From: an uncultured Clostridia bacterium
GTDB lineage: Bacteria > Bacillota > Clostridia > Christensenellales > UBA1242
NCBI GenBank assembly: GCA_934748015.1
Contig: CAKVHF010000001.1
Span: 188,663-252,662, forward strand
Length of the DNA: 64,000 nucleotides
Direction: 5' to 3'
The position numbers and the translations under genes are program-made. Positions 12,409-49,389 of the stretch are shown one piece after another (the first letter of the stretch is position 1; each line of letters starts with the position of its first letter). The notes beneath the pieces were generated by a model. That model had not been told where the DNA came from, ran no database searches, and was given only the letters and a program-made list of their open reading frames with translations.

Positions 12409-13972
12409 TCTGAAATTGCTGTTAAAACTTAATTTCTTACGATTTATAGCCGTATTTAAGGGTAAGAAAAAAGAACGATCCAATGTGTCGGCGCTGTGTC
12501 TACTAATATTGGCGGTGCTAGGTGTCCTTGCGTTATACTCAGTGCAATGTACGCTTATGTACAAGGATCTTGCGCCTGTGGGACTAGCCAAAATGTGTAT
12601 GTTCCTAGGGGTAATCATCTCGTTATCGGTCTTGATGATTTTTGCTGTTATGCGTACAACCACCAACAATACTGCTGGTGATACCGACTTTTTGATGACT
12701 TTGCCTATCAAGAAGAGTAGTATTATTGTGTCCAAAGTGCTTAGTACATATCTTATGGATCTAGGACTTACTGCACTTACTCTTGCTCCATATTTGGTTA
12801 ATTATCAGATTTTTACCAGGTTCAATTGGGCAACTACTTTCCTTGGTCTTCTTACAATATTTTTGTTGCCACTGCTTAGTGTAGGGGTGACTTATATAGT
12901 CAACTTCTTGGTTGTAAGACTATTTAACCGAACCAAGTACTCTAAGTTGTTCAAGACATTATTTGCTTTGACAATATATTTGGCAATCATGGTGTTACTG
13001 TACACCAAGACCTTTGCAATGAATGATTCTCTTAACTCTAGCAACATTGAAGATTTCTTTGTTGATAGACCTATATCCAATATGTTCTTGAAATTTGTTA
13101 CTGAGCCTAATTGGATATGTGTCTTAGTTGTGCTTGCTATCACACTTATCCCTGCCACTATTGGCTTAGTTGCTTATTATTACAATTTTGGTAAGAGCTT
13201 TGAGAAATTTGCTAATAAATCAGATGTGTTACATTTTGGTGATGGCAAGAGTACATTTGTCAATCTGCTTAACAAGGAAAAATCTGTGTACTTCAATATT
13301 CCAGCTTATGTCATTAATACAATAATTAGCCCAATAATGATTGTGGCACTAAGTGTCGTTGCATGTATATTTATTAACGATGACTTTTGGATGACAATGC
13401 AGGGGATTGGCTTTAGCAAAGATATGATTATTGGCTGTATTGCTATAATATTTAGTGTATTTAACTCCATGGGTTGTATATCTTGTAGTTCTATTTCGCT
13501 AGAAGGTGGCTCTATGTGGATACTTAAGACTATGCCTGTTAACGAGCGATTAATATTTCTGTCCAAAATTGCGTTTCATATAGTTATTCAGTTGCCAGCA
13601 GTGATTGTGGCATCAACCTTGCTTACAATCATTTTGCATTTATCTGCATTACAAACGGCAATCATTTATGCTGTTCCAATATTATTTGTTGTTTTACTTA
13701 GTCTGCTTGGGTTGGTTATCAATTTATGGCTACCTAAGTTCGAGTGGGATAACGAGACACAAGTGGTTAAGTCTAGTATGGCTGTGTTAATGGTTATGGT
13801 GTTTGGCTTGATCATCTCTATCATTCCAATCTTGCTATTTAAGTTCCTTACTGCATTATCTATTCTCAATATCTTTTTGATAACTATAGGACTATATCTA
13901 GCACTTATTGTATTCTTGCTCGTATTCCTTATGACACAGGGTGTTAAGATATTCCGCAAGTTAAATGTGTAA
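12401..13972 (+). CDS. Polytopic ABC exporter permease (523 aa, at least 10 predicted TM helices)
   Basis: Overlaps the ATPase stop by 8 nt (translational coupling). Hydrophobic helices run throughout. No specific family motif recognised. Confidence 0.65.
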   Translation: MTDLKLLLKLNFLRFIAVFKGKKKERSNVSALCLLILAVLGVLALYSVQCTLMYKDLAPVGLAKMCMFLGVIISLSVLMIFAVMRTTTNNTAGDTDFLMTLPIKKSSIIVSKVLSTYLMDLGLTALTLAPYLVNYQIFTRFNWATTFLGLLTIFLLPLLSVGVTYIVNFLVVRLFNRTKYSKLFKTLFALTIYLAIMVLLYTKTFAMNDSLNSSNIEDFFVDRPISNMFLKFVTEPNWICVLVVLAITLIPATIGLVAYYYNFGKSFEKFANKSDVLHFGDGKSTFVNLLNKEKSVYFNIPAYVINTIISPIMIVALSVVACIFINDDFWMTMQGIGFSKDMIIGCIAIIFSVFNSMGCISCSSISLEGGSMWILKTMPVNERLIFLSKIAFHIVIQLPAVIVASTLLTIILHLSALQTAIIYAVPILFVVLLSLLGLVINLWLPKFEWDNETQVVKSSMAVLMVMVFGLIISIIPILLFKFLTALSILNIFLITIGLYLALIVFLLVFLMTQGVKIFRKLNV

Positions 13973-13987
13973 AAAAGTCTTACTTAA

Positions 13988-14029
13988 ATATAAGAGTTTT
14001 GCCTTAGTAGCATGCTCTTATATTTTTTT
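13988..14029 (+). terminator. Intrinsic terminator after the ABC permease gene
   Basis: ATATAAGAG pairs with CTCTTATAT, followed by a T-run. Confidence 0.7.
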
Positions 14030-14150
14030 GTAAATATTATGCAAAATATTTTGAATTTTACAAAATATGTGCAATACTATTCGTGTTATGAATAATATGT
14101 TTTTTGATAACATTTTAATAGGCGAAAATATGTTGTTAGACACTCTAACA

Positions 14151-14276
14151 ATGTCTATTTTTAGTCGTTTTGCTGAAGTAAACGGGGGGGGGGTATTACT
14201 AGATAAAACTAGCAATATCTTAACTTATATAACTAAATATTTCGATCATAACAACTTAAGTCGAGAGTGTTTTTAG
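14151..14276 (+). CDS. Candidate leader mini-ORF A (41 aa) running through the G10 tract and stopping in the terminator loop
   Basis: ATG 14151 lies at the 3' foot of the hairpin. It reads ...EVNGGGVLLDK...NNLSRECF, with TAG at 14274-14276 inside the terminator loop. There is no clear Shine-Dalgarno, so coding status is unproven. Confidence 0.3.
   Translation: MSIFSRFAEVNGGGVLLDKTSNILTYITKYFDHNNLSRECF
14184..14193 (+). repeat. Homopolymeric G10 tract in leader A
   Basis: Counted directly: aac-GGGGGGGGGG-tattactagataa. The homologous tract in copy B is G6. Confidence 0.95.
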
Positions 14277-14296
14277 CCGACTTAGGTTGTTTTTTC
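14250..14296 (+). terminator. Intrinsic terminator/attenuator in leader A
   Basis: AACAACTTAAGTCG (14250-14263) pairs with CGACTTAGGTTGTT (14278-14291), 14 bp including one G-U, followed by TTTTT. Confidence 0.75.
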
Positions 14297-14330
14297 GTTT
14301 GTTATAGAGTGTAGTTGTAATATTGGTAAT

Positions 14331-14415
14331 GGCTGTGGGGCGACCACTGGCGTGGTCTAGTGGGCAAAAACTTTTGCCCACATGCGAGCCTTTCGGCTCG
14401 CATTGCCCCACAGCC
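14331..14415 (+). ncRNA. GC-rich four-way-junction (cloverleaf-like) element, copy A; class unknown
   Basis: P1 GGCTGTGGGGC / GCCCCACAGCC encloses three hairpins: GACCAC-TGGC-GTGGTC, GTGGGCAA..TTGCCCAC and ATGCGAGCC-TTTC-GGCTCGCAT. It is a GC-rich island in AT-rich DNA, with a second copy at 47131-47211. Confidence 0.5.
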
Positions 14416-14516
14416 TCTGCACATAATTAACCAAACTAATTATTTCAGAAATACATAACAAAAACATATTTTAAACAAAATTTCACATTATAAATTATAA
14501 GGAGAAATTACATATA

Positions 14517-16670
14517 ATGACGAAAAATAGAAAAATGTTGGCATTGGCTATCGCACTGGTTATTATGTTAGTAACCGTCAGTGGCACACTTATTGCAGTG
14601 CTAGTTGCTAGTAACCAGAGTGCCCAGTCCAAGGTGCATGTTAAGTACACTAGCAGTGATGTCAATGTCAAGGTTGAGGCAAAATACTATGTCGGATCAA
14701 CTGGTACAGACATGGTAGACAAGAGCAATAGCAATGCAAAATCAATAGAACTGGATGCTAATAAGACTTCAGGTTCACTTGATCAACTTGCATCTGAGGT
14801 CTCACTAAGCAAAACTAATAGCAAAATAATTTATGAATATAAGTTTACTAACTTATCTACAACTATCCCAGCCACTATTGGTCAGTTGGTTGAAAATGGC
14901 AGTGTAGTTGTTCCAAAAGATAGCAATAACAATGTGAAACTAACATATACATCATCGTCATCATCACTAGGTGCTGGAGCAAGCAGTGATGCTACAACTC
15001 TTAACACCCAAGGTCTTCCAGCAGGAACAACAAGATATGTCTATGTTATTGTGTCTATTGTAGAATTACTTAACGATGTAGACTTCGAGGGTACATTTGG
15101 CTGGGATCTAGCAAAAGGTGAGGCTATTACATCCAATACAACTGGAGGAAGCCAATCTATCGTTGTAGACACCACAGACGTGAAATTGTATAACAAATCT
15201 GCTATGGAGAATATACAATTGGTAGTAGGAGTAGAGAACACCGAACCTGACTACCCAATGATAGAAGATAAATGCTTTACAGGGTGGTATTCCGATTCTG
15301 GCCTTAACAATAAGGTAGAATTTCCAATCATCCCAACCGCCGATACTATACTATATCCTAAGCACGAGACAGCGACAAGCGACCTGACATATATGTACGA
15401 GTCAGAATCTTATGCTGTAGGCGATGACACCTTTGGGTATCAGGGCTCAGAGACAGATATTGTTATTCCTGATGTATATGATGATGGAACAAATGGATTA
15501 CATCCTGTTACAAGGATATCATGGTGTGCTTTTGAGTTTGAAGAAGCGTCCGATATGGTTCAAGTAGACATAAATAGTATCTACATGCCTAACACTATAA
15601 CGGAAATAGGCGAGATGGCTTTTTATGAATGCAGAATATCAAGTATTTTCATTCCGTCCAGTGTAACCATTTTACAGTATACTGCAATTAGTACTTGTCC
15701 AAACTTAACTAATATAGAAGTAGACAGTAATAATGCAACATATCGTAGTGAAAGTAATTGTATAATAGATAGGGCTACTAATGAGTTGGTATATGGCTGT
15801 GTTAACTCTAATATACCAGAAAGTGTCACTAGTATAGGATCTTCTGCCTTTTCTGATTGCAGTGGCTTAACAAGTATAACCATTGGATCAGGTGTCACCA
15901 GTATAGGGGATTCTGCCTTTTCTGGATGCAGTGGCTTAACAAGTATAATAATTCCAGATAGTGTAACTAGTATAAGTGATTCTGCCTTTTCTGGATGCAG
16001 TGGCTTAACAAGTATAACAATTTCCAATAGTGTCACTAGTATAGGATCTTATGCCTTTGATGGATGCAGTGGCTTAACAAGTATAACAGTATCTAGTGGT
16101 AACACAGTATATCGCAGTGAAGGAAATTGTATAATAGAGAAATCCTCTAATACATTAATACTAGGTTGTAAAAATTCAATTATTCCTAGCGGTGTCATCA
16201 GTATAGGGATGAATGCCTTTTTTGATTGCAGTGGCTTAACAAGTATAACAATTCCAGATAGTGTAACCAGTATAGGGGAGAATGTCTTTCGAAATTGCAG
16301 TGGCTTAACAAGTATAACCATTGGATCAGGTGTCACCAGTATAGGGATAAGTGCTTTTTCTTATTGTAGTGGCTTAACAAGTATAACAATTCCAGATAGT
16401 GTCACCAGTATAGAATACTCTGCCTTTTCTGATTGCAGTGGCTTAACAAGTATAACTATAGGTAGCGGAGTGAAACACATAGGAAACAACGCATTTAGCA
16501 ATTGTTCAAAACTAACTAGTGCAACTTTTAAGAATACAACCGGCTGGACTGTAACCACCTCTAGCACAGCAACGACTGGTACAGCAGTAACAATATCAAC
16601 AACTGATCTTGCTGCCAATGCGACACTATTGAAAACTACACATGTAAGTAAGTATTGGAACAGAGCATAG
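14517..16670 (+). CDS. Membrane-anchored surface protein, paralog 2 (717 aa; N-domain + Listeria/Bacteroides-type repeat + long BspA-type LRR array)
   Basis: RBS AAGGAG. Signal anchor MTKNRKMLALAIALVIMLVTVSGTLIAVLVA. Contains CFTGWYSD...LYPK. About 9 near-identical 23-aa LRR units (SVTSIGxSAFSxCSGLTSITI). C-terminal tail NATLLKTTHVSKYWNRA. Confidence 0.85.
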   Translation: MTKNRKMLALAIALVIMLVTVSGTLIAVLVASNQSAQSKVHVKYTSSDVNVKVEAKYYVGSTGTDMVDKSNSNAKSIELDANKTSGSLDQLASEVSLSKTNSKIIYEYKFTNLSTTIPATIGQLVENGSVVVPKDSNNNVKLTYTSSSSSLGAGASSDATTLNTQGLPAGTTRYVYVIVSIVELLNDVDFEGTFGWDLAKGEAITSNTTGGSQSIVVDTTDVKLYNKSAMENIQLVVGVENTEPDYPMIEDKCFTGWYSDSGLNNKVEFPIIPTADTILYPKHETATSDLTYMYESESYAVGDDTFGYQGSETDIVIPDVYDDGTNGLHPVTRISWCAFEFEEASDMVQVDINSIYMPNTITEIGEMAFYECRISSIFIPSSVTILQYTAISTCPNLTNIEVDSNNATYRSESNCIIDRATNELVYGCVNSNIPESVTSIGSSAFSDCSGLTSITIGSGVTSIGDSAFSGCSGLTSIIIPDSVTSISDSAFSGCSGLTSITISNSVTSIGSYAFDGCSGLTSITVSSGNTVYRSEGNCIIEKSSNTLILGCKNSIIPSGVISIGMNAFFDCSGLTSITIPDSVTSIGENVFRNCSGLTSITIGSGVTSIGISAFSYCSGLTSITIPDSVTSIEYSAFSDCSGLTSITIGSGVKHIGNNAFSNCSKLTSATFKNTTGWTVTTSSTATTGTAVTISTTDLAANATLLKTTHVSKYWNRA
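15822..16530 (+). repeat. Intragenic tandem 69-nt (23-aa LRR) repeats, near-identical at the DNA level
   Basis: The core tgcagtggcttaacaagtataac recurs about every 69 nt in two blocks (about 15822-16097 and about 16190-16530). Confidence 0.85.
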
Positions 16671-24800: not shown

Positions 24801-25941
24801 ATGAATACAACAAGAAAAATGTCTTTAGCCTTGGTGCTATTGTGCGTGACACTGGCTATTACTGTGATGACATTAGGATTGGTATTGGTTTCTGGAACTC
24901 AAGATGTAATAACCGACCTAGATATTCATTATGCGGGGGGGGGGTGTCACTTTTGAAGTAGGTGATGACTGCATTAACAAGAGTGACTTTGCAACCATCA
25001 AAGTTGACAAGGTTACTAAGACTGCTGTCGTACAACAACCAGCCAATCCCAATCAGTTAGGCAAAACATTTGAGGGCTGGTACACAGATAGTAGTATAAC
25101 TCAGAAGGTAGATAAGTTCCCTGTAACTCTATCTAAGGGTGATGTGCTATATGCCAATTATTATGATGCATCCACATGGCTGACATTGTCTTGGAATGCT
25201 ACAACTAGTTCATACTCTGTCGAAAGGAGTAGCTCGTCTTCTGCAACAGAGGCAATAATTCCAGATATATATGACGATGGGACACATGGGGTTGCAGTGG
25301 TTGATACTATAGGATCATATTCGTTGACTGATGTAACAACTTTGACCAATATTTATTTGTCTAACAACATCACAACAATTAGCGAGAGGGCTTTTTCCGC
25401 TTGTGCTAATGTAACTGCAATTAATGTTCCGGAAAATGTTGCTACAATCGGTGCATATTGGCTACAAAATATGAAAAAGCTAAAAACCATAAATTGGAAT
25501 GCAATAAATGCGGAGTACACTGCAGAATTTTCGCAAACATATAGTGTTGGTTCGCAATACGGAATTGACTTTGTTGTTGGTTACAAAGTGCAGAGTATTC
25601 CTAGATATTTGTTCAATCCACAATCTTCAAAATCTTATGTTAAATCTATTGATATGACCAATGCTACATCGCTAAAGGAAATTGGATCTTGGGCTTTTGG
25701 TGGTTGTTATAAGATAACATCTCTTACAATTCCTGCCAGTGTAGAATTGATTGGAGCATATGCTTTTACCGAATGTACTGGTTTATCCAGTATAACATTT
25801 GAAGTATCAGATAACTGGTATAGATTTTCATCCGAGACAGCAACCACTGGTGGAACTGCGTTGTCTTTAGGCTCTGCTTATACTGATGCTAAATGGATAA
25901 GAGATACTTATGCACAATATTGGTGGAGAAGAATTTCATAA
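24801..25941 (+). pseudogene. Surface protein paralog 3, split by a G10 tract (currently frameshifted; candidate phase-variable gene)
   Basis: ATG 24801 follows AAGGAG and encodes the signal anchor MNTTRKMSLALVLLCVTLAITVMTLGLVLV. This frame ends at TGA 24954-24956, just after G10 (24935-24944). The -1 register continues as VTFEVGDD...FEGWYTD...LRR units...YAQYWWRRIS through 25941. G9 or G12 would fuse both parts. Confidence 0.75.
24935..24944 (+). repeat. Homopolymeric G10 tract inside the paralog 3 coding sequence
   Basis: Counted directly: cattatgc-GGGGGGGGGG-tgtcac. Confidence 0.95.
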
Positions 25942-45676: not shown

Positions 45677-46813
45677 ATGGATAACTTGGGTATATATATT
45701 CACATTCCGTTTTGTCTAAGTAAGTGCAGATATTGCGATTTTAACTCTTTTGCTGGCAAAACACATTTGCAAAAAGATTATCTATTCGCCTTAATTAAAC
45801 AGATAAGAGGCACTGCAGATAGGTGCAAAGGGCGAGAAGTAGACACTATATATATTGGTGGCGGAACACCAAGTTGTATGTTCAATGGTGCTATTCAGAC
45901 AATACTGGCAGAAGTGCGAAAGTATTATAAGATAAGAGATGATGCAGAGATATCTATGGAAGCTAATCCCAATAGCATAACTATGGATAAAGCATTGGAG
46001 TGGCGAAATGCTGGCGTCAACAGAATAAGCGTGGGGCTACAGACTACGAGATCAAGTGCTTTGCAATTAATAGGCAGAACACACACCAAGAAGGACTATG
46101 TCAATGCAATACAGGTGCTTCATAATGCTGGATTTAACAATATCAATACCGATCTTATGATAGGATTGCCTAAGCAGAAGTCATCTGATGTGAGATATAC
46201 CGTAGATCTATGTGCCAAGTTGGGGTGTAAGCATATCAGTTGTTATAGCCTTATATTGGAAGAAAATACACCGCTGTATGCTATGGTTAAAGAAGGTAAA
46301 GTGAAACTGCCTAAAGAAGCTAAGACTATTGGGATGTATAACACTGCATATACTGAGTTAACTAAGTTAGGTTATAATAGATATGAGGTCAGTAACTTTG
46401 CATTGGATGGATATAGGTGTAGACACAACCTTAATTGTTGGAATATGTGTGAGTATCTTGGCTTTGGGGCAGGGGCTTGCGGATATTATGACAATGTAAG
46501 ATATGAGAATACAAAATCTATAGAAGATTATATCAATAAGATTAATAACAACGTAGATCCAATAGTAGATTATGATAAGTGTGATCAATCATCTAATTAC
46601 GAAGAAATGATTATGCTAGGATTGCGAACAACGGATGGCATAACTATAGATAACCTAGATAAGTGCCTAGGATGTGACTTTGTTGAGAAATACAGAGATA
46701 CTATAGATAAGTATCAGAAACTAGGATTGATAGAAATATTGGATGGCAGGCTCCGTGTCACTTCCAAGGGTTTCTTTGTCCTAAATCAGATAATATTAGA
46801 TTTTGTTATGTAA
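45677..46813 (+). CDS. hemW: Radical SAM heme chaperone HemW (coproporphyrinogen III oxidase-like)
   Basis: IYIHIPFCLSKCRYCDF radical SAM motif and GGGTPS. Directly after lepA; ATG 45677 sits 1 nt after the lepA stop. Confidence 0.88.
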   Translation: MDNLGIYIHIPFCLSKCRYCDFNSFAGKTHLQKDYLFALIKQIRGTADRCKGREVDTIYIGGGTPSCMFNGAIQTILAEVRKYYKIRDDAEISMEANPNSITMDKALEWRNAGVNRISVGLQTTRSSALQLIGRTHTKKDYVNAIQVLHNAGFNNINTDLMIGLPKQKSSDVRYTVDLCAKLGCKHISCYSLILEENTPLYAMVKEGKVKLPKEAKTIGMYNTAYTELTKLGYNRYEVSNFALDGYRCRHNLNCWNMCEYLGFGAGACGYYDNVRYENTKSIEDYINKINNNVDPIVDYDKCDQSSNYEEMIMLGLRTTDGITIDNLDKCLGCDFVEKYRDTIDKYQKLGLIEILDGRLRVTSKGFFVLNQIILDFVM

Positions 46814-46814
46814 A

Positions 46815-46848
46815 AACTATCCTATAGATAATATGGGATAGTTTTTTT
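46815..46848 (+). terminator. Intrinsic terminator after hemW
   Basis: AACTATCC pairs with GGATAGTT, followed by a T-run. Confidence 0.75.
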
Positions 46849-46975
46849 ATAAAAATTTGTGAAATATTTAATTTTATTTTGAAAAAATATATGATTGTGA
46901 CATAATATAAGTATGAGGAAAAATGTTTGCATTTATAGTTTAATAAGAGATTTTACATTGTTAAATGTTTTAACA

Positions 46976-47098
46976 ATGGCTTCTTTTAGGCAAGATGTAA
47001 TAGTTCAACGGGGGGTATTACTAGATAATTCTAGTATTATCATAACCGATATAACTCAATATAACGATAATAACAACTTAAGTCGATGGTGTTTCTAG
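46976..47098 (+). CDS. Candidate leader mini-ORF B (40 aa) running through the G6 tract and stopping in the terminator loop
   Basis: ATG 46976 lies at the hairpin foot. It reads ...VQRGVLLDN...NNLSRWCF, with TAG at 47096-47098 in the terminator loop. No clear Shine-Dalgarno. Confidence 0.3.
   Translation: MASFRQDVIVQRGVLLDNSSIIITDITQYNDNNNLSRWCF
47010..47015 (+). repeat. Homopolymeric G6 tract in leader B
   Basis: Counted directly: caac-GGGGGG-tattactagataa. Confidence 0.95.
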
Positions 47099-47118
47099 GC
47101 AACTTAGGTTGTTTTTTC
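47072..47118 (+). terminator. Intrinsic terminator/attenuator in leader B
   Basis: AACAACTTAAGTCG (47072-47085) pairs with CAACTTAGGTTGTT (47100-47113), followed by TTTTT. Confidence 0.7.
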
Positions 47119-47130
47119 GTATTTTTTATA

Positions 47131-47211
47131 GGCTTTGGGCGACCACTGTCGTGATCTAGCGGGCGTTTCCGCCCACCATGCGAGCCTTTTTGGCTCGCAT
47201 GACCCAAAGCC
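47131..47211 (+). ncRNA. GC-rich four-way-junction (cloverleaf-like) element, copy B; class unknown
   Basis: P1 GGCTTTGGG / CCCAAAGCC encloses GACCAC-TGTC-GTGATC, GGGCG-TTTC-CGCCC and ATGCGAGCC-TTTTT-GGCTCGCAT. P1 differs from copy A by a compensatory G:C to T:A change. Confidence 0.5.
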
Positions 47212-47313
47212 CTCGCTTGCTTGTATCAACTATTTTCCCTCAAATAAAAATGTATTGTATACAAAGCAAATATATTTGTACAAAAATAAGAATACGTTAA
47301 AAAAGGAAAAATA

Positions 47314-49389
47314 ATGATAACAAAAAACAGAAAAATGCTAGCGTTGATAATTGCATTGGTTATAACATTGGTTTCGGTCAGTGGGACTCTTATTGCAGTA
47401 TTGGTTATCAGCAACCAGAGTGCACAATCAACAGTTCATGTTAAATATACCAGTACTGATGTTAACGTAAGAGTAGAAGCTAAGTATTATGTAGGTACGA
47501 CAGGTACAGACATGGTAGACAAGAGCAATAGCAATGCAAAATATCTAGATTTAGATGCTAATAAAACATCAGGTTCTCTTGATCAACCATCTAACGAAGC
47601 GGTCGAGCTAAGCAAAACTAATAACAAAATAATCTATGAATACAAGTTCACCAACTTATCTACAACTATCCCAGCAACTATAGGTCAGCTGGTCGAAAAT
47701 GGCAATGTTGTTGTTCCAAAAGACAGCAATAACAATGTAAAACTAACATATACATCGTCTTCAACATCCCTAGGTTCAGGAGCAACTAGTGACGCAACTA
47801 CACTTAATACCCAAGGACTTCCTGCAGGTACAACAAGATATGTCTATGTTATTGTGTCTATTGTAGAACTACTTAATGATGTAGATTTTTCTGGCAGTTT
47901 TGGTTGGGATCTAGCGAAAGGTGAGGCTATTACATCCAATACAACTGCAGGTAGTCAATCTATCGTTGTAGACACCACAGACGTGAAATTGTATAACAAA
48001 TCTGCTATGGAGAATATACAATTGGTCGTAGGAGTAGAGAACACCGAGCCGGACTACCCAATGATAGAAGACAAATGTTTTACTGGTTGGTATACTGATG
48101 AAAGTTTAGAAACTAAAGCAGTTTTTCCATTAACTCCAACTGCTGAAACCAAATTGTATCCTAAGTATGAAACAGCAACAAGTGATCTTACTTATGTGTA
48201 TAATGAAGCATCACAAAGCTATTTTGTTGGGGATGGAACTACATCATATTCCGGGTCGACAAAAAATATTGTTATTCCTGATACATATAACAATGGAACC
48301 AATGGATTACATGCGGTAACATGTATTAACGATTGTGCGTTTTTAAAAACTAGTATTATTAGTGGTATTGTAATTCCAGGTTCTGTTAGTAATATAAGTA
48401 TAGGAGATAATAGGGCATTGAAAGGCGGCATAACTACAGTGTCTGTATCTTCGGCTAATCCTGTATATAAGAGTGAGAATACATGTATAGTACGCAAGGC
48501 TGATAATTGCTTAATATACGGAGGCCAGAAATATGATATACCAAAATATGTAACATCAATATATGATTATGCATGTTTTGGTTCATATGCTACAACAATT
48601 GCATTAAGAGAAGGTGTTGTTAGTATTGGAAGGCATGCTTTTTATAATAATAAGTTTGCTGAGCTTATTATTCCATCTAGTGTTGTCAATATTGATGAAT
48701 TGGCATTCTCTTCTTGTATGCACTTAAAAAGGGTTACTTTTAAAGAAGGCTTACTTAGTATAGGAAAAGAGGCATTTAGAGGCTGTGTTTCTCTAACAAG
48801 TGTTACAATTCCGAGCACAGTAACCAGTTTGGATCGTCTAGCTTTTATTAATTGTACAGCATTAAATTCTTTTTGGGTTTCAGATAATAACAAAGTGTAT
48901 AAGGGTGAAAGTAATTGTGTAATGTTAAGAGCAGAACCTACTGTTTTGTATTGTTGTTTTGCAAATGGTACTATTCCTGCCTATATAACTAAAATAGGTG
49001 ATTATGCATTTTACTATAATACGGCACGTGGCTCGCTTCATATACCAAAATCTGTAACGGAAATAGGTGTTAGTGCTTTTGAATCTTCTTCAATTAAGGG
49101 TAGCGTCGTTATACCAGATAGTGTAATTACTATTGGAAATTCTGCTTTTAAAAGCTGTAACATAACAAGTGTGACAATTGGTAATGGCGTTAAAAGTATA
49201 GGGGTAAACGCTTTTTATTATTGTGGTAACTTAACAAATATTACATTCAATACAATAACTGGCTGGACTGTCACAAATGACAGTAGCGCAACCACTGGAG
49301 ATCCAGTTACCGTGTCAAAATCTGATACAAAAGCTAATGCGACACTACTAAGAACAACACATGCAAGTAAATATTGGCACAGGGCATAG
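47314..49389 (+). CDS. Membrane-anchored surface protein, paralog 5 (691 aa)
   Basis: Signal anchor MITKNRKMLALIIALVITLVSVSGTLIAVLVI, the family N-domain, CFTGWYTD...LYPK, a divergent BspA-type LRR array, and the tail ANATLLRTTHASKYWHRA. Confidence 0.85.
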   Translation: MITKNRKMLALIIALVITLVSVSGTLIAVLVISNQSAQSTVHVKYTSTDVNVRVEAKYYVGTTGTDMVDKSNSNAKYLDLDANKTSGSLDQPSNEAVELSKTNNKIIYEYKFTNLSTTIPATIGQLVENGNVVVPKDSNNNVKLTYTSSSTSLGSGATSDATTLNTQGLPAGTTRYVYVIVSIVELLNDVDFSGSFGWDLAKGEAITSNTTAGSQSIVVDTTDVKLYNKSAMENIQLVVGVENTEPDYPMIEDKCFTGWYTDESLETKAVFPLTPTAETKLYPKYETATSDLTYVYNEASQSYFVGDGTTSYSGSTKNIVIPDTYNNGTNGLHAVTCINDCAFLKTSIISGIVIPGSVSNISIGDNRALKGGITTVSVSSANPVYKSENTCIVRKADNCLIYGGQKYDIPKYVTSIYDYACFGSYATTIALREGVVSIGRHAFYNNKFAELIIPSSVVNIDELAFSSCMHLKRVTFKEGLLSIGKEAFRGCVSLTSVTIPSTVTSLDRLAFINCTALNSFWVSDNNKVYKGESNCVMLRAEPTVLYCCFANGTIPAYITKIGDYAFYYNTARGSLHIPKSVTEIGVSAFESSSIKGSVVIPDSVITIGNSAFKSCNITSVTIGNGVKSIGVNAFYYCGNLTNITFNTITGWTVTNDSSATTGDPVTVSKSDTKANATLLRTTHASKYWHRA

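Follow-up and report, generated by a model that had tools for sequence, protein, structure and literature searches.

What guanine tracts are doing in front of surface-protein genes, and not inside them, is the question raised by a 64,000-nucleotide (nt) stretch of DNA from an uncultured Clostridia bacterium (contig CAKVHF010000001.1, positions 188,663 to 252,662; the whole stretch is called the window, and positions refer to it). The window has a GC content of 36%, and its sequence was matched in a 1.08-Mb human-gut metagenome scaffold (ENA ERZ28615298) and in Hadza and other assemblies. Upstream of two of its genes for BspA-type leucine-rich repeat (LRR) surface proteins, paralogs 2 and 5, lies the same leader module, which consists of a promoter, a hairpin, an open frame across a G tract and an intrinsic terminator, in that order. 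Re-reading of 13800-14600 and 46650-47400 bore out the first-pass annotation, in which all parts of both copies (A and B) and the tracts of ten and six guanines (G10 and G6) had been located; copy B repeated the order of parts upstream of paralog 5. The recurring module was found to run past 14296, on to a GC-rich four-way junction in A and likewise in B. The feature was thus confirmed as real and non-random. It is probably a phase-variable leader-peptide transcription attenuator, a homopolymer-based and non-homologous analogue of the pil1 leader of Streptococcus gallolyticus, present at several loci of the BspA family. The parts of copy A are as follows.

14051-14080, plus strand: candidate promoter, -35 box TTGAAT (14051-56), 18-nt spacer, -10 box TACTAT (14075-80), homologous to the copy B promoter.
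14088-14276, plus strand: leader open reading frame (ORF), 62 codons plus TAG, its ATG 7 nt after the -10 box; more in-frame ATGs at 14097, 14130 and 14151.
14132-14152, plus strand: hairpin P1, GUUGUUAGA-CAC-UCUAACAAU, then a U-rich stretch; predicted at -8.8 kcal/mol.
14184-14193, plus strand: G tract, G10, the in-frame ("long peptide") state, 324 nt before the BspA start codon.
14192-14219, plus strand: invariant string TATTACTAGATAA and hairpin P2; the string (14194-14206) makes up the 5' arm and loop of P2.
14250-14297, plus strand: predicted intrinsic terminator, 14-bp stem (14250-63/14278-91), 14-nt loop with TAG at 14274-76, U run.
14331-14415, plus strand: predicted four-way-junction RNA, GC-rich, 85 nt, an outer stem around three hairpins.
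14517-16670, plus strand: BspA-type LRR surface protein, paralog 2 (Pfam LRR_5, 1.4e-76), with the Shine-Dalgarno sequence AGGAG at 14500-04.

Those of copy B are the following.

46879-46906, plus strand: candidate promoter, TTGAAA, 16-nt spacer, TG-n-CATAAT; 10/12 consensus matches, extended -10.
46913-47098, plus strand: leader ORF, 61 codons plus TAG, enclosing the G tract (47010-47015) and the invariant string (47016-47028).
47010-47015, plus strand: G tract, G6, 299 nt before the BspA start codon.
47072-47119, plus strand: predicted terminator, TAG at 47096-98 in the loop; -13.4 kcal/mol.
47131-47211, plus strand: predicted GC-rich four-way junction, same architecture.
47314-49389, plus strand: BspA-type LRR surface protein, paralog 5 (Pfam LRR_5, 6.4e-50).

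Both proteins behind these copies are LRR_5 BspA-type with an N-terminal signal anchor. Two further loci, C and D, were reached through homologues of the BspA N-terminal domain in related metagenome assemblies.

Contig L018, 1490-1860: copy C, from the genome to which the window belongs, located behind a sigma-70-family gene; a second strain is represented by contig L023.
Contig L020, 1670-1935 (sample ERZ28575248): copy D, with G9, the string TATTACTAGATAG (TAG for the last TAA), an A-type terminator and no junction.

Besides the promoter and P1, copy C of L018 had an ORF of 55 codons, a terminator that has been rebuilt, and the four-way junction; its tract was G4 only, and the TATTACTAGATAA string was lacking or degenerate.

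The open frame was examined across these copies. The conserved start was the ATG in GTTATGA, 4-7 nt past the -10 box and near the predicted transcription start. The ATG at the foot of the hairpin, taken as the start in the first-pass annotation, was AAG in copies C and D and is therefore not conserved. From the conserved ATG to the terminator loop, frame 0 was free of stops for 62 codons in A, 61 in B and 55 in C, in DNA of 29% GC. The other frames held 3-11 stops, with 4-11 when counted from the ATG through to the terminator U run and nine in each over the body of the copy A ORF. Shuffling gave a probability of 0.003-0.01 per copy for a stop-free frame of such length. As annotated, the ORF was open through the G tract and ended at the TAG in the terminator loop, at 14274-76 in A and 47096-98 in B. 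The leader ORFs of A and B aligned without gaps across the first 22 codons, and the frame was kept between them because a 1-nt indel before the tract offset the 4-nt difference in tract length (tract plus pre-tract, 106 versus 103 nt). The peptide itself was not conserved. Its C-terminal halves were unrelated, the homologous stretch AAAyTGAATATT had one reading frame in copy C and another in D, and no homologues outside the lineage were found by a word-indexed search of 5.8 billion clusters or a full HMMER pass over 1.84 billion representatives. A frame kept open over an unconserved peptide shows that selection acted on translatability and not on the product. Seven single-nucleotide polymorphisms (SNPs) were clustered in the 5' half of the leader ORF in a low-coverage Hadza contig (L011, 184-393, equal to window 14104-14177); six of the seven were non-synonymous, the P1 loop was altered, and the remaining ~600 nt were identical. 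This cluster could be due to recombination with another copy or to read error.

A phase-variable gene of the ordinary kind that encodes a small protein, has a terminator of its own and was duplicated as one cassette with a BspA gene on its own promoter would also hold a frame open. Gene callers do list the ORF (the copy A version has 69 amino acids and starts at 14067), and a stop codon that overlaps a terminator is common at ordinary gene ends. The unconserved peptide, its unrelated C-terminal halves and the reading of homologous DNA in different frames do not fit such a gene, nor do the lack of homologues elsewhere and of a Shine-Dalgarno sequence. The promoters were also informative. A plus-strand scan called no promoter between the terminator and the BspA start codon of copies A and B, and this interval was only ~75 nt in copy D. 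Module-less paralogs carried the same upstream promoter, TTTTGAwa...GTGcAATAATAT, at window positions 959 and 35335 and in contigs L019 and L021, and the module is thus inserted downstream of the family promoter and upstream of the ribosome-binding site. We therefore regard an independent small-protein gene as quite unlikely. As part of the preferred attenuator reading, the leader would be a portable 5' cassette that some of the BspA-type genes carry behind the family promoter. A promoter candidate between the terminator and the junction of copy A was dropped because that 23-nt stretch was missing in B.

The tract was the second line of evidence. Runs of at least six G or C occurred just three times in the 64 kb, all at BspA paralogs (14184, 24935 and 47010), and only ~0.009 G10/C10 runs would be expected. 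As for other simple sequence repeats (SSRs), the window contained no A/T runs of at least 10, no pentanucleotide repeat, and no longer-unit repeats beyond two five-copy dinucleotides. A comparison of related strains, recommended in the first-pass annotation, showed that tract length varies. At copy A, G10 was found in the window and L011, G9 in L010, and G8 in L016 and L017. The 69-residue form (G10) was present in 11 contigs, plus the 91%-identical variant of L011, the 44-residue form (G9) in one contig, and the 45-residue form (G8, also in one NCBI genome) in three to four. The G10 contigs L004-L009 were identical to the window, and the G9 and G8 contigs belonged to other strains, 97.6% and ~98% identical. 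Over the 544 nt of the leader, the G8 strains differed in the tract alone; the divergence was 1.7-1.9% in the flanking ABC genes and 13% at the BspA N-terminus. Locus C occurred with G4 (P0022) and G10 (P0027, verified in L023), as well as with G9 as deduced from the peptide (P0025) and with a +1 frame consistent with G5 (P0026, peptide only).

These data bear on the view that the tract has no regulatory role, in which case a duplicated 5' region would contain either a homopolymer that is neutral and error-prone or length variation created by assembly. The copies are indeed paralogous duplicates, the variants came from short-read metagenome assemblies, and several contigs broke near the tract. 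This view leaves unaccounted for the recurrence of G8 in three to four contigs of different sources, a leader more conserved apart from the tract than the flanking genes, the restriction of long G tracts to BspA paralogs against the small expected number, and a tract position kept at A, B and D and, in L023, at C. A neutral origin is highly improbable. Three of the six contigs retrieved via the ABC permease (L006, L008 and L009) ended in the leader, ~60 nt or less from the G tract (window 14150-14270); these breaks may stem from mixed tract lengths among the reads or from drop-out of sequencing at poly-G.

The third tract was located inside a gene.

24935-24944: G10 tract within the coding sequence of a BspA paralog (24801-25941), between the signal peptide and the mature part.

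Its alleles were G10 (out of frame, OFF; 19 contigs), G12 (a fused 380-residue ON form, P0020) and G8 (P0018), and from its sequence it can be classed as a classical in-gene contingency locus. Since this tract varies as well, poly-G slippage appears to be the way in which the organism varies its BspA proteins. The tracts at 14184 and 47010 were outside the structural gene, in a separate upstream ORF (which ends at 14276 in A), and so are not in-gene contingency loci. They were also not arranged for promoter-spacer phase variation, being ~100 nt downstream of the -10 box and outside the -35/-10 interval.

The position of the stop codon in each register connected the tract with the terminator. 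The string behind the tract was identical in A and B and carried two off-frame stops in copy A, TAG at 14200-02 and TAA at 14204-06; in D it ended in G, so that the off-frame stop was TAG. The string thus supplied stops in both shifted frames and also formed P2, and these two readings of it were mutually compatible. The prediction of the first-pass annotation that loss of one G would bring the TAG, and gain of one the TAA, into frame held for natural alleles, since the G9 form (P0003, ...GGGYY*) and the G8 form (P0005, ...GGGITR*) ended exactly there. Stop positions were computed by simulating tract lengths from G4 to G13.

A and B alleles: the frame was long in one of three registers and ended in the terminator loop; the shifted frames met the TAG or the TAA in the string and so ended 46-50 nt short of the 5' arm.
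D allele: the frame was long in one of three registers (G10) and ended at TAA in the 5' arm; the shifted frames stopped 47-51 nt upstream.
C-type allele: the frame was long in two of three registers and ended in the loop or the 3' arm; the third register stopped 43-46 nt upstream.

The long frames ended in the loop in A, B, C and P0025, in the 5' arm in D at G10, and in the 3' arm in L023. Natural alleles of both kinds occurred, with the stop either within the hairpin or well upstream. In every case, the stop of the long frame lay inside the terminator hairpin.

The terminator itself was predicted as a hairpin with a U run in all five alleles, at -13.4 to -21.9 kcal/mol. It had been annotated as strong; the 14-bp stem and the T-run were present, and the predicted energies of -16.9 (A; z-score -4.8) and -13.4 kcal/mol (B) are moderate. 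Comparison of L018 (1680-1734) with the window (14250-14297) revealed a turnover of the hairpin: CTTAAGTCG, which serves as 5' arm in A, B and D, is the 3' arm of copy C. There it paired with a new upstream arm, and the leader stop was still inside the new loop. The turnover is relevant to a post-transcriptional switch, in which the register would alter ribosome cover of the leader and act on mRNA decay or polarity instead of terminator formation. Such a switch rests on the same open frame and tract as the attenuator, and the stable four-way junction downstream could serve as a processing or stability element. The stop, however, tracked the hairpin even in the rebuilt terminator, which is expected for steric anti-termination and unneeded for an effect on stability, and copy D was without the junction. 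A post-transcriptional switch appears unlikely.

The two upstream hairpins invite an explanation without translation. P1 was present in all copies, and the compensatory change of its stem reported in the first-pass annotation was found again as one G-C pair replaced by A-U in copy B (G/C to A/T in the DNA). P2 had a predicted fold of -11.6 kcal/mol (z-score -4.7). A U-rich stretch (CUAUUUUU, CUUCUUUU or CUUUUUCUU) followed the P1 stem after 2-10 nt in every copy (window 14153-14165 and 46979-46990). As a speculation, P1 and this stretch may make RNA polymerase pause at the hairpin and so give the ribosome time to draw level, as happens in the trp leader. The tract could instead alter folding, since P2 starts in its last Gs; it could make the polymerase pause or slip; or it could affect base-pairing with a small RNA rich in C and U, as in the case of Helicobacter pylori tlpB and RepG. 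The conserved P1 and P2, the missing Shine-Dalgarno sequence and the known targeting of leader G repeats by small RNAs would suit such an effect. A 55-62-codon stop-free frame in five diverged alleles, the frame-restoring indels and the stops in both shifted frames directly after the tract would not be explained by it, and the window contained no C run of at least six and no obvious anti-G RNA of the C-rich RepG type. We consider an effect at the RNA or DNA level alone improbable. Each of the four alternatives failed to explain at least one of three features, namely the open but unconserved frame, the placement of the stop in the hairpin, and the polymorphism between strains.

A phase-variable leader-peptide attenuator would account for these features together. 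The switch logic proposed in the first-pass annotation was backed by the tract polymorphism, the open frame without peptide conservation and the stop kept in the hairpin in copy C and L023; the mechanism itself we infer as follows. Transcription would start at the conserved ATG or a few nt before it, and ribosomes would translate the leader of 55-62 codons, the peptide sequence being immaterial. One register of the tract, or two in the C-type allele, would keep the frame open to the stop inside the terminator hairpin. A ribosome in this frame would cover the 5' arm and block the hairpin, and RNA polymerase would read through into the BspA gene (ON). Gain or loss of one G by slipped-strand mispairing would bring a stop within 3-7 codons, 43-51 nt before the hairpin, whereupon the terminator would form and the gene would be OFF or low. 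The assignment of the ON register follows the analogy with S. gallolyticus pil1.

The first-pass annotation knew of no described system that joins a contingency tract to a leader-peptide attenuator. This combination was shown experimentally by Danne et al. 2014 (PMC3894217) at pil1 and pil3 of S. gallolyticus, and the module is therefore a new example and not a new principle. There, GCAGA repeats inside the leader-peptide ORF shift its frame; a stop at least 28 nt before the stem-loop terminator gives low expression, and a stop within or after the hairpin gives high expression. The terminators of pil1 and pil3 are at -18.7 and -28.2 kcal/mol, and the dependence of pil1 on translation was proven by start-codon, stop-codon and terminator-deletion mutants and holds in Lactococcus too (PMC3894217). 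The module of this work likewise has an SSR (G10 or G6) in a short leader ORF (62 or 61 codons) of a surface-structure gene with an intrinsic terminator behind it, its repeat number differs between strains, and the register sets the stop upstream of the hairpin or in it. The predicted terminator energies (-13 to -22 kcal/mol) are comparable to that of pil1, and the C-type allele has two long frames of three, as does pil1. In contrast to the 13-22 GCAGA pentanucleotides of pil1, the repeat is a G homopolymer, and the leaders share no sequence homology, which makes them analogues and not homologues. Whereas pil1 has a clear ribosome-binding site, none is present here and the ATG lies at the predicted transcription start. 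A, B and D have a single long frame of three, with two stops built in right after the tract, and the module occupies several loci over a paralogous BspA family, often with the additional four-way-junction RNA. Finally, pil1 was proven by experiment, and the mechanism proposed here is deduced.

Several observations weigh against the attenuator. The sigma-A promoter of the first-pass annotation had its boxes in both copies, but that of copy A matched only 8 of 12 consensus positions and fell below the threshold of the promoter scan. A consensus terminator scan did not call the terminator of copy A or B, owing to its large 14-nt loop. No Shine-Dalgarno sequence was present before the conserved ATG or the conserved in-frame internal starts of any copy, so that leaderless or near-leaderless initiation must be assumed, which is a weak point. 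Copy B was G6 in four of four sequences. All tract variants were taken from consensus assemblies of metagenomes and belong to different strains, and sequencing errors arise easily in homopolymers. The attenuator as proposed leaves the four-way junction without a role. Transcription and translation are uncoupled in Bacillus subtilis, and ribosome-dependent attenuation is accordingly uncommon in Firmicutes. To this last objection it can be answered that leader-peptide attenuation works in Streptococcus and Lactococcus (Danne 2014, PMC3894217).

The attenuator can be placed among other known systems as well. In the proposed mechanism, the ribosome that translates the leader keeps the terminator hairpin from forming. 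The same occurs at Escherichia coli pyrBI and with the trp and his leader peptides, where a ribosome translating into the attenuator blocks the terminator hairpin and the input sensed is UTP or charged tRNA. Here, by contrast, the input would be a heritable frameshift, and no conserved antiterminator or regulatory codon run was found in the leader copies. An asparagine-sensing attenuator of the trp/his type was considered for the Asn codons (NN, NNN) on the 5' arm in A and B, where the folds were without a conserved antiterminator; it was dropped because the codons were absent from copy C. In Moraxella, uspA1 has a poly-G tract in its leader that affects expression at the level of transcription. 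The G repeat in the H. pylori tlpB leader is described in PMC8295292 as the target of the small RNA RepG. In these two cases, judging for tlpB by that description, a variable leader G tract tunes a downstream surface or chemotaxis gene, as would be the case here; no leader ORF figures in them, while a reading frame and a terminator geometry are conserved here. At Clostridioides difficile cwpV, according to the account in PMC5914908 of Emerson 2009, DNA inversion by RecV creates or removes a terminator in the leader of a surface-protein gene. On that account, cwpV also has phase-variable premature intrinsic termination in a surface-protein leader of a gut Firmicute, and differs in that the terminator here is constant and slippage would change ribosome access. 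The BspA-like genes of Candidatus Mycoplasma girerdii are switched by in-gene SSRs (PMC5476646). As in such loci, Campylobacter poly-G genes included, slippage would switch surface proteins, and BspA-like families are typical targets; the tracts at 14184 and 47010 differ by their place in a separate upstream ORF.

The four-way junction was found in A, B, C and L023 and was absent in D. At locus C it had the following positions.

L018, 1773-1853, and L023, 2748-2828: four-way-junction RNA of locus C.

Its size was 81-85 nt, and its distance past the terminator was ~35 nt in A and 12 nt in B. It was predicted to be very stable, with whole-leader folding z-scores of -9.3 (A) and -6.9 (B). Two pairs of the outer stem changed on both sides yet stayed paired among A, B, C, L023 and L010, and the inner hairpins were nearly invariant. 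Neither the leader nor the junction matched an Rfam family at gathering scores over the whole window, where only tRNAs were reported, or at E<=10 over 13950-14530. A scan with the junction pattern GGGCGACCACTGNCGTGNTCTAG had no match in species-representative genomes, and the junction core had six chance matches in viral contigs, in GC-rich coding DNA. Nhmmer profiles of the leader and the junction gave no additional copy in the window or the retrieved loci, and four matches of GGGGGTATTACTAGATAA in metagenome contigs were all due to chance, in coding sequence. In a bolder and rather unlikely version of the attenuator, the junction would be a new class of cis-acting element acting with it, for example a platform for processing, stability or protein binding, the tract would be a three-state selector with graded output (stop in the loop, in the 3' arm or far upstream), and the cassette would be specific to an uncultured gut lineage with small genomes. 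If this were true, the tracts in leaders and in coding sequences would together exert combinatorial control over a hypervariable BspA repertoire.

In the literature searched, the combination of SSR phase variation and leader-peptide attenuation was documented in one species only, and later papers on it mentioned only S. gallolyticus. An independent, non-homologous version, with a mononucleotide tract at several loci of a BspA-type adhesin family in an uncultured human-gut bacterium, would, if true, show that the design evolved more than once. For the prediction of contingency loci from metagenomes, it suggests scoring homopolymers in "intergenic" leaders for short upstream frames and terminators.

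The BspA N-terminal domain was found in this lineage only, in 11 of 5.8 billion clusters; a scan of species-representative genomes gave no match to it, and an exact look-up of the 717-residue paralog 2 returned no record. The N-terminal region of the protein (window 14517-15400 compared with L016 and L010) diverged by 6-13%, the neighbouring genes by 1-2%, and the leader was nearly identical. From these sequences, the surface protein seems to have undergone recombination or diversifying selection. Two proteins, P0014 and P0015, were N-terminally truncated BspA forms that start at MVENGS. In the strain with G10 at copy C, the BspA gene (L023, 2974-5059) contained a nonsense TAA where other paralogs have GAA in the motif KIIYEYKF, which splits the gene into ORFs of 100 and 556 residues. 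Directly upstream of copy C, a protein of 232 residues of the sigma-70 family (regions 2 and 4, with a weak HTH_3 match) was encoded at L018, 743-1441, and L023, 1707-2405, and the position of its gene next to copy C was the same in the two strains.

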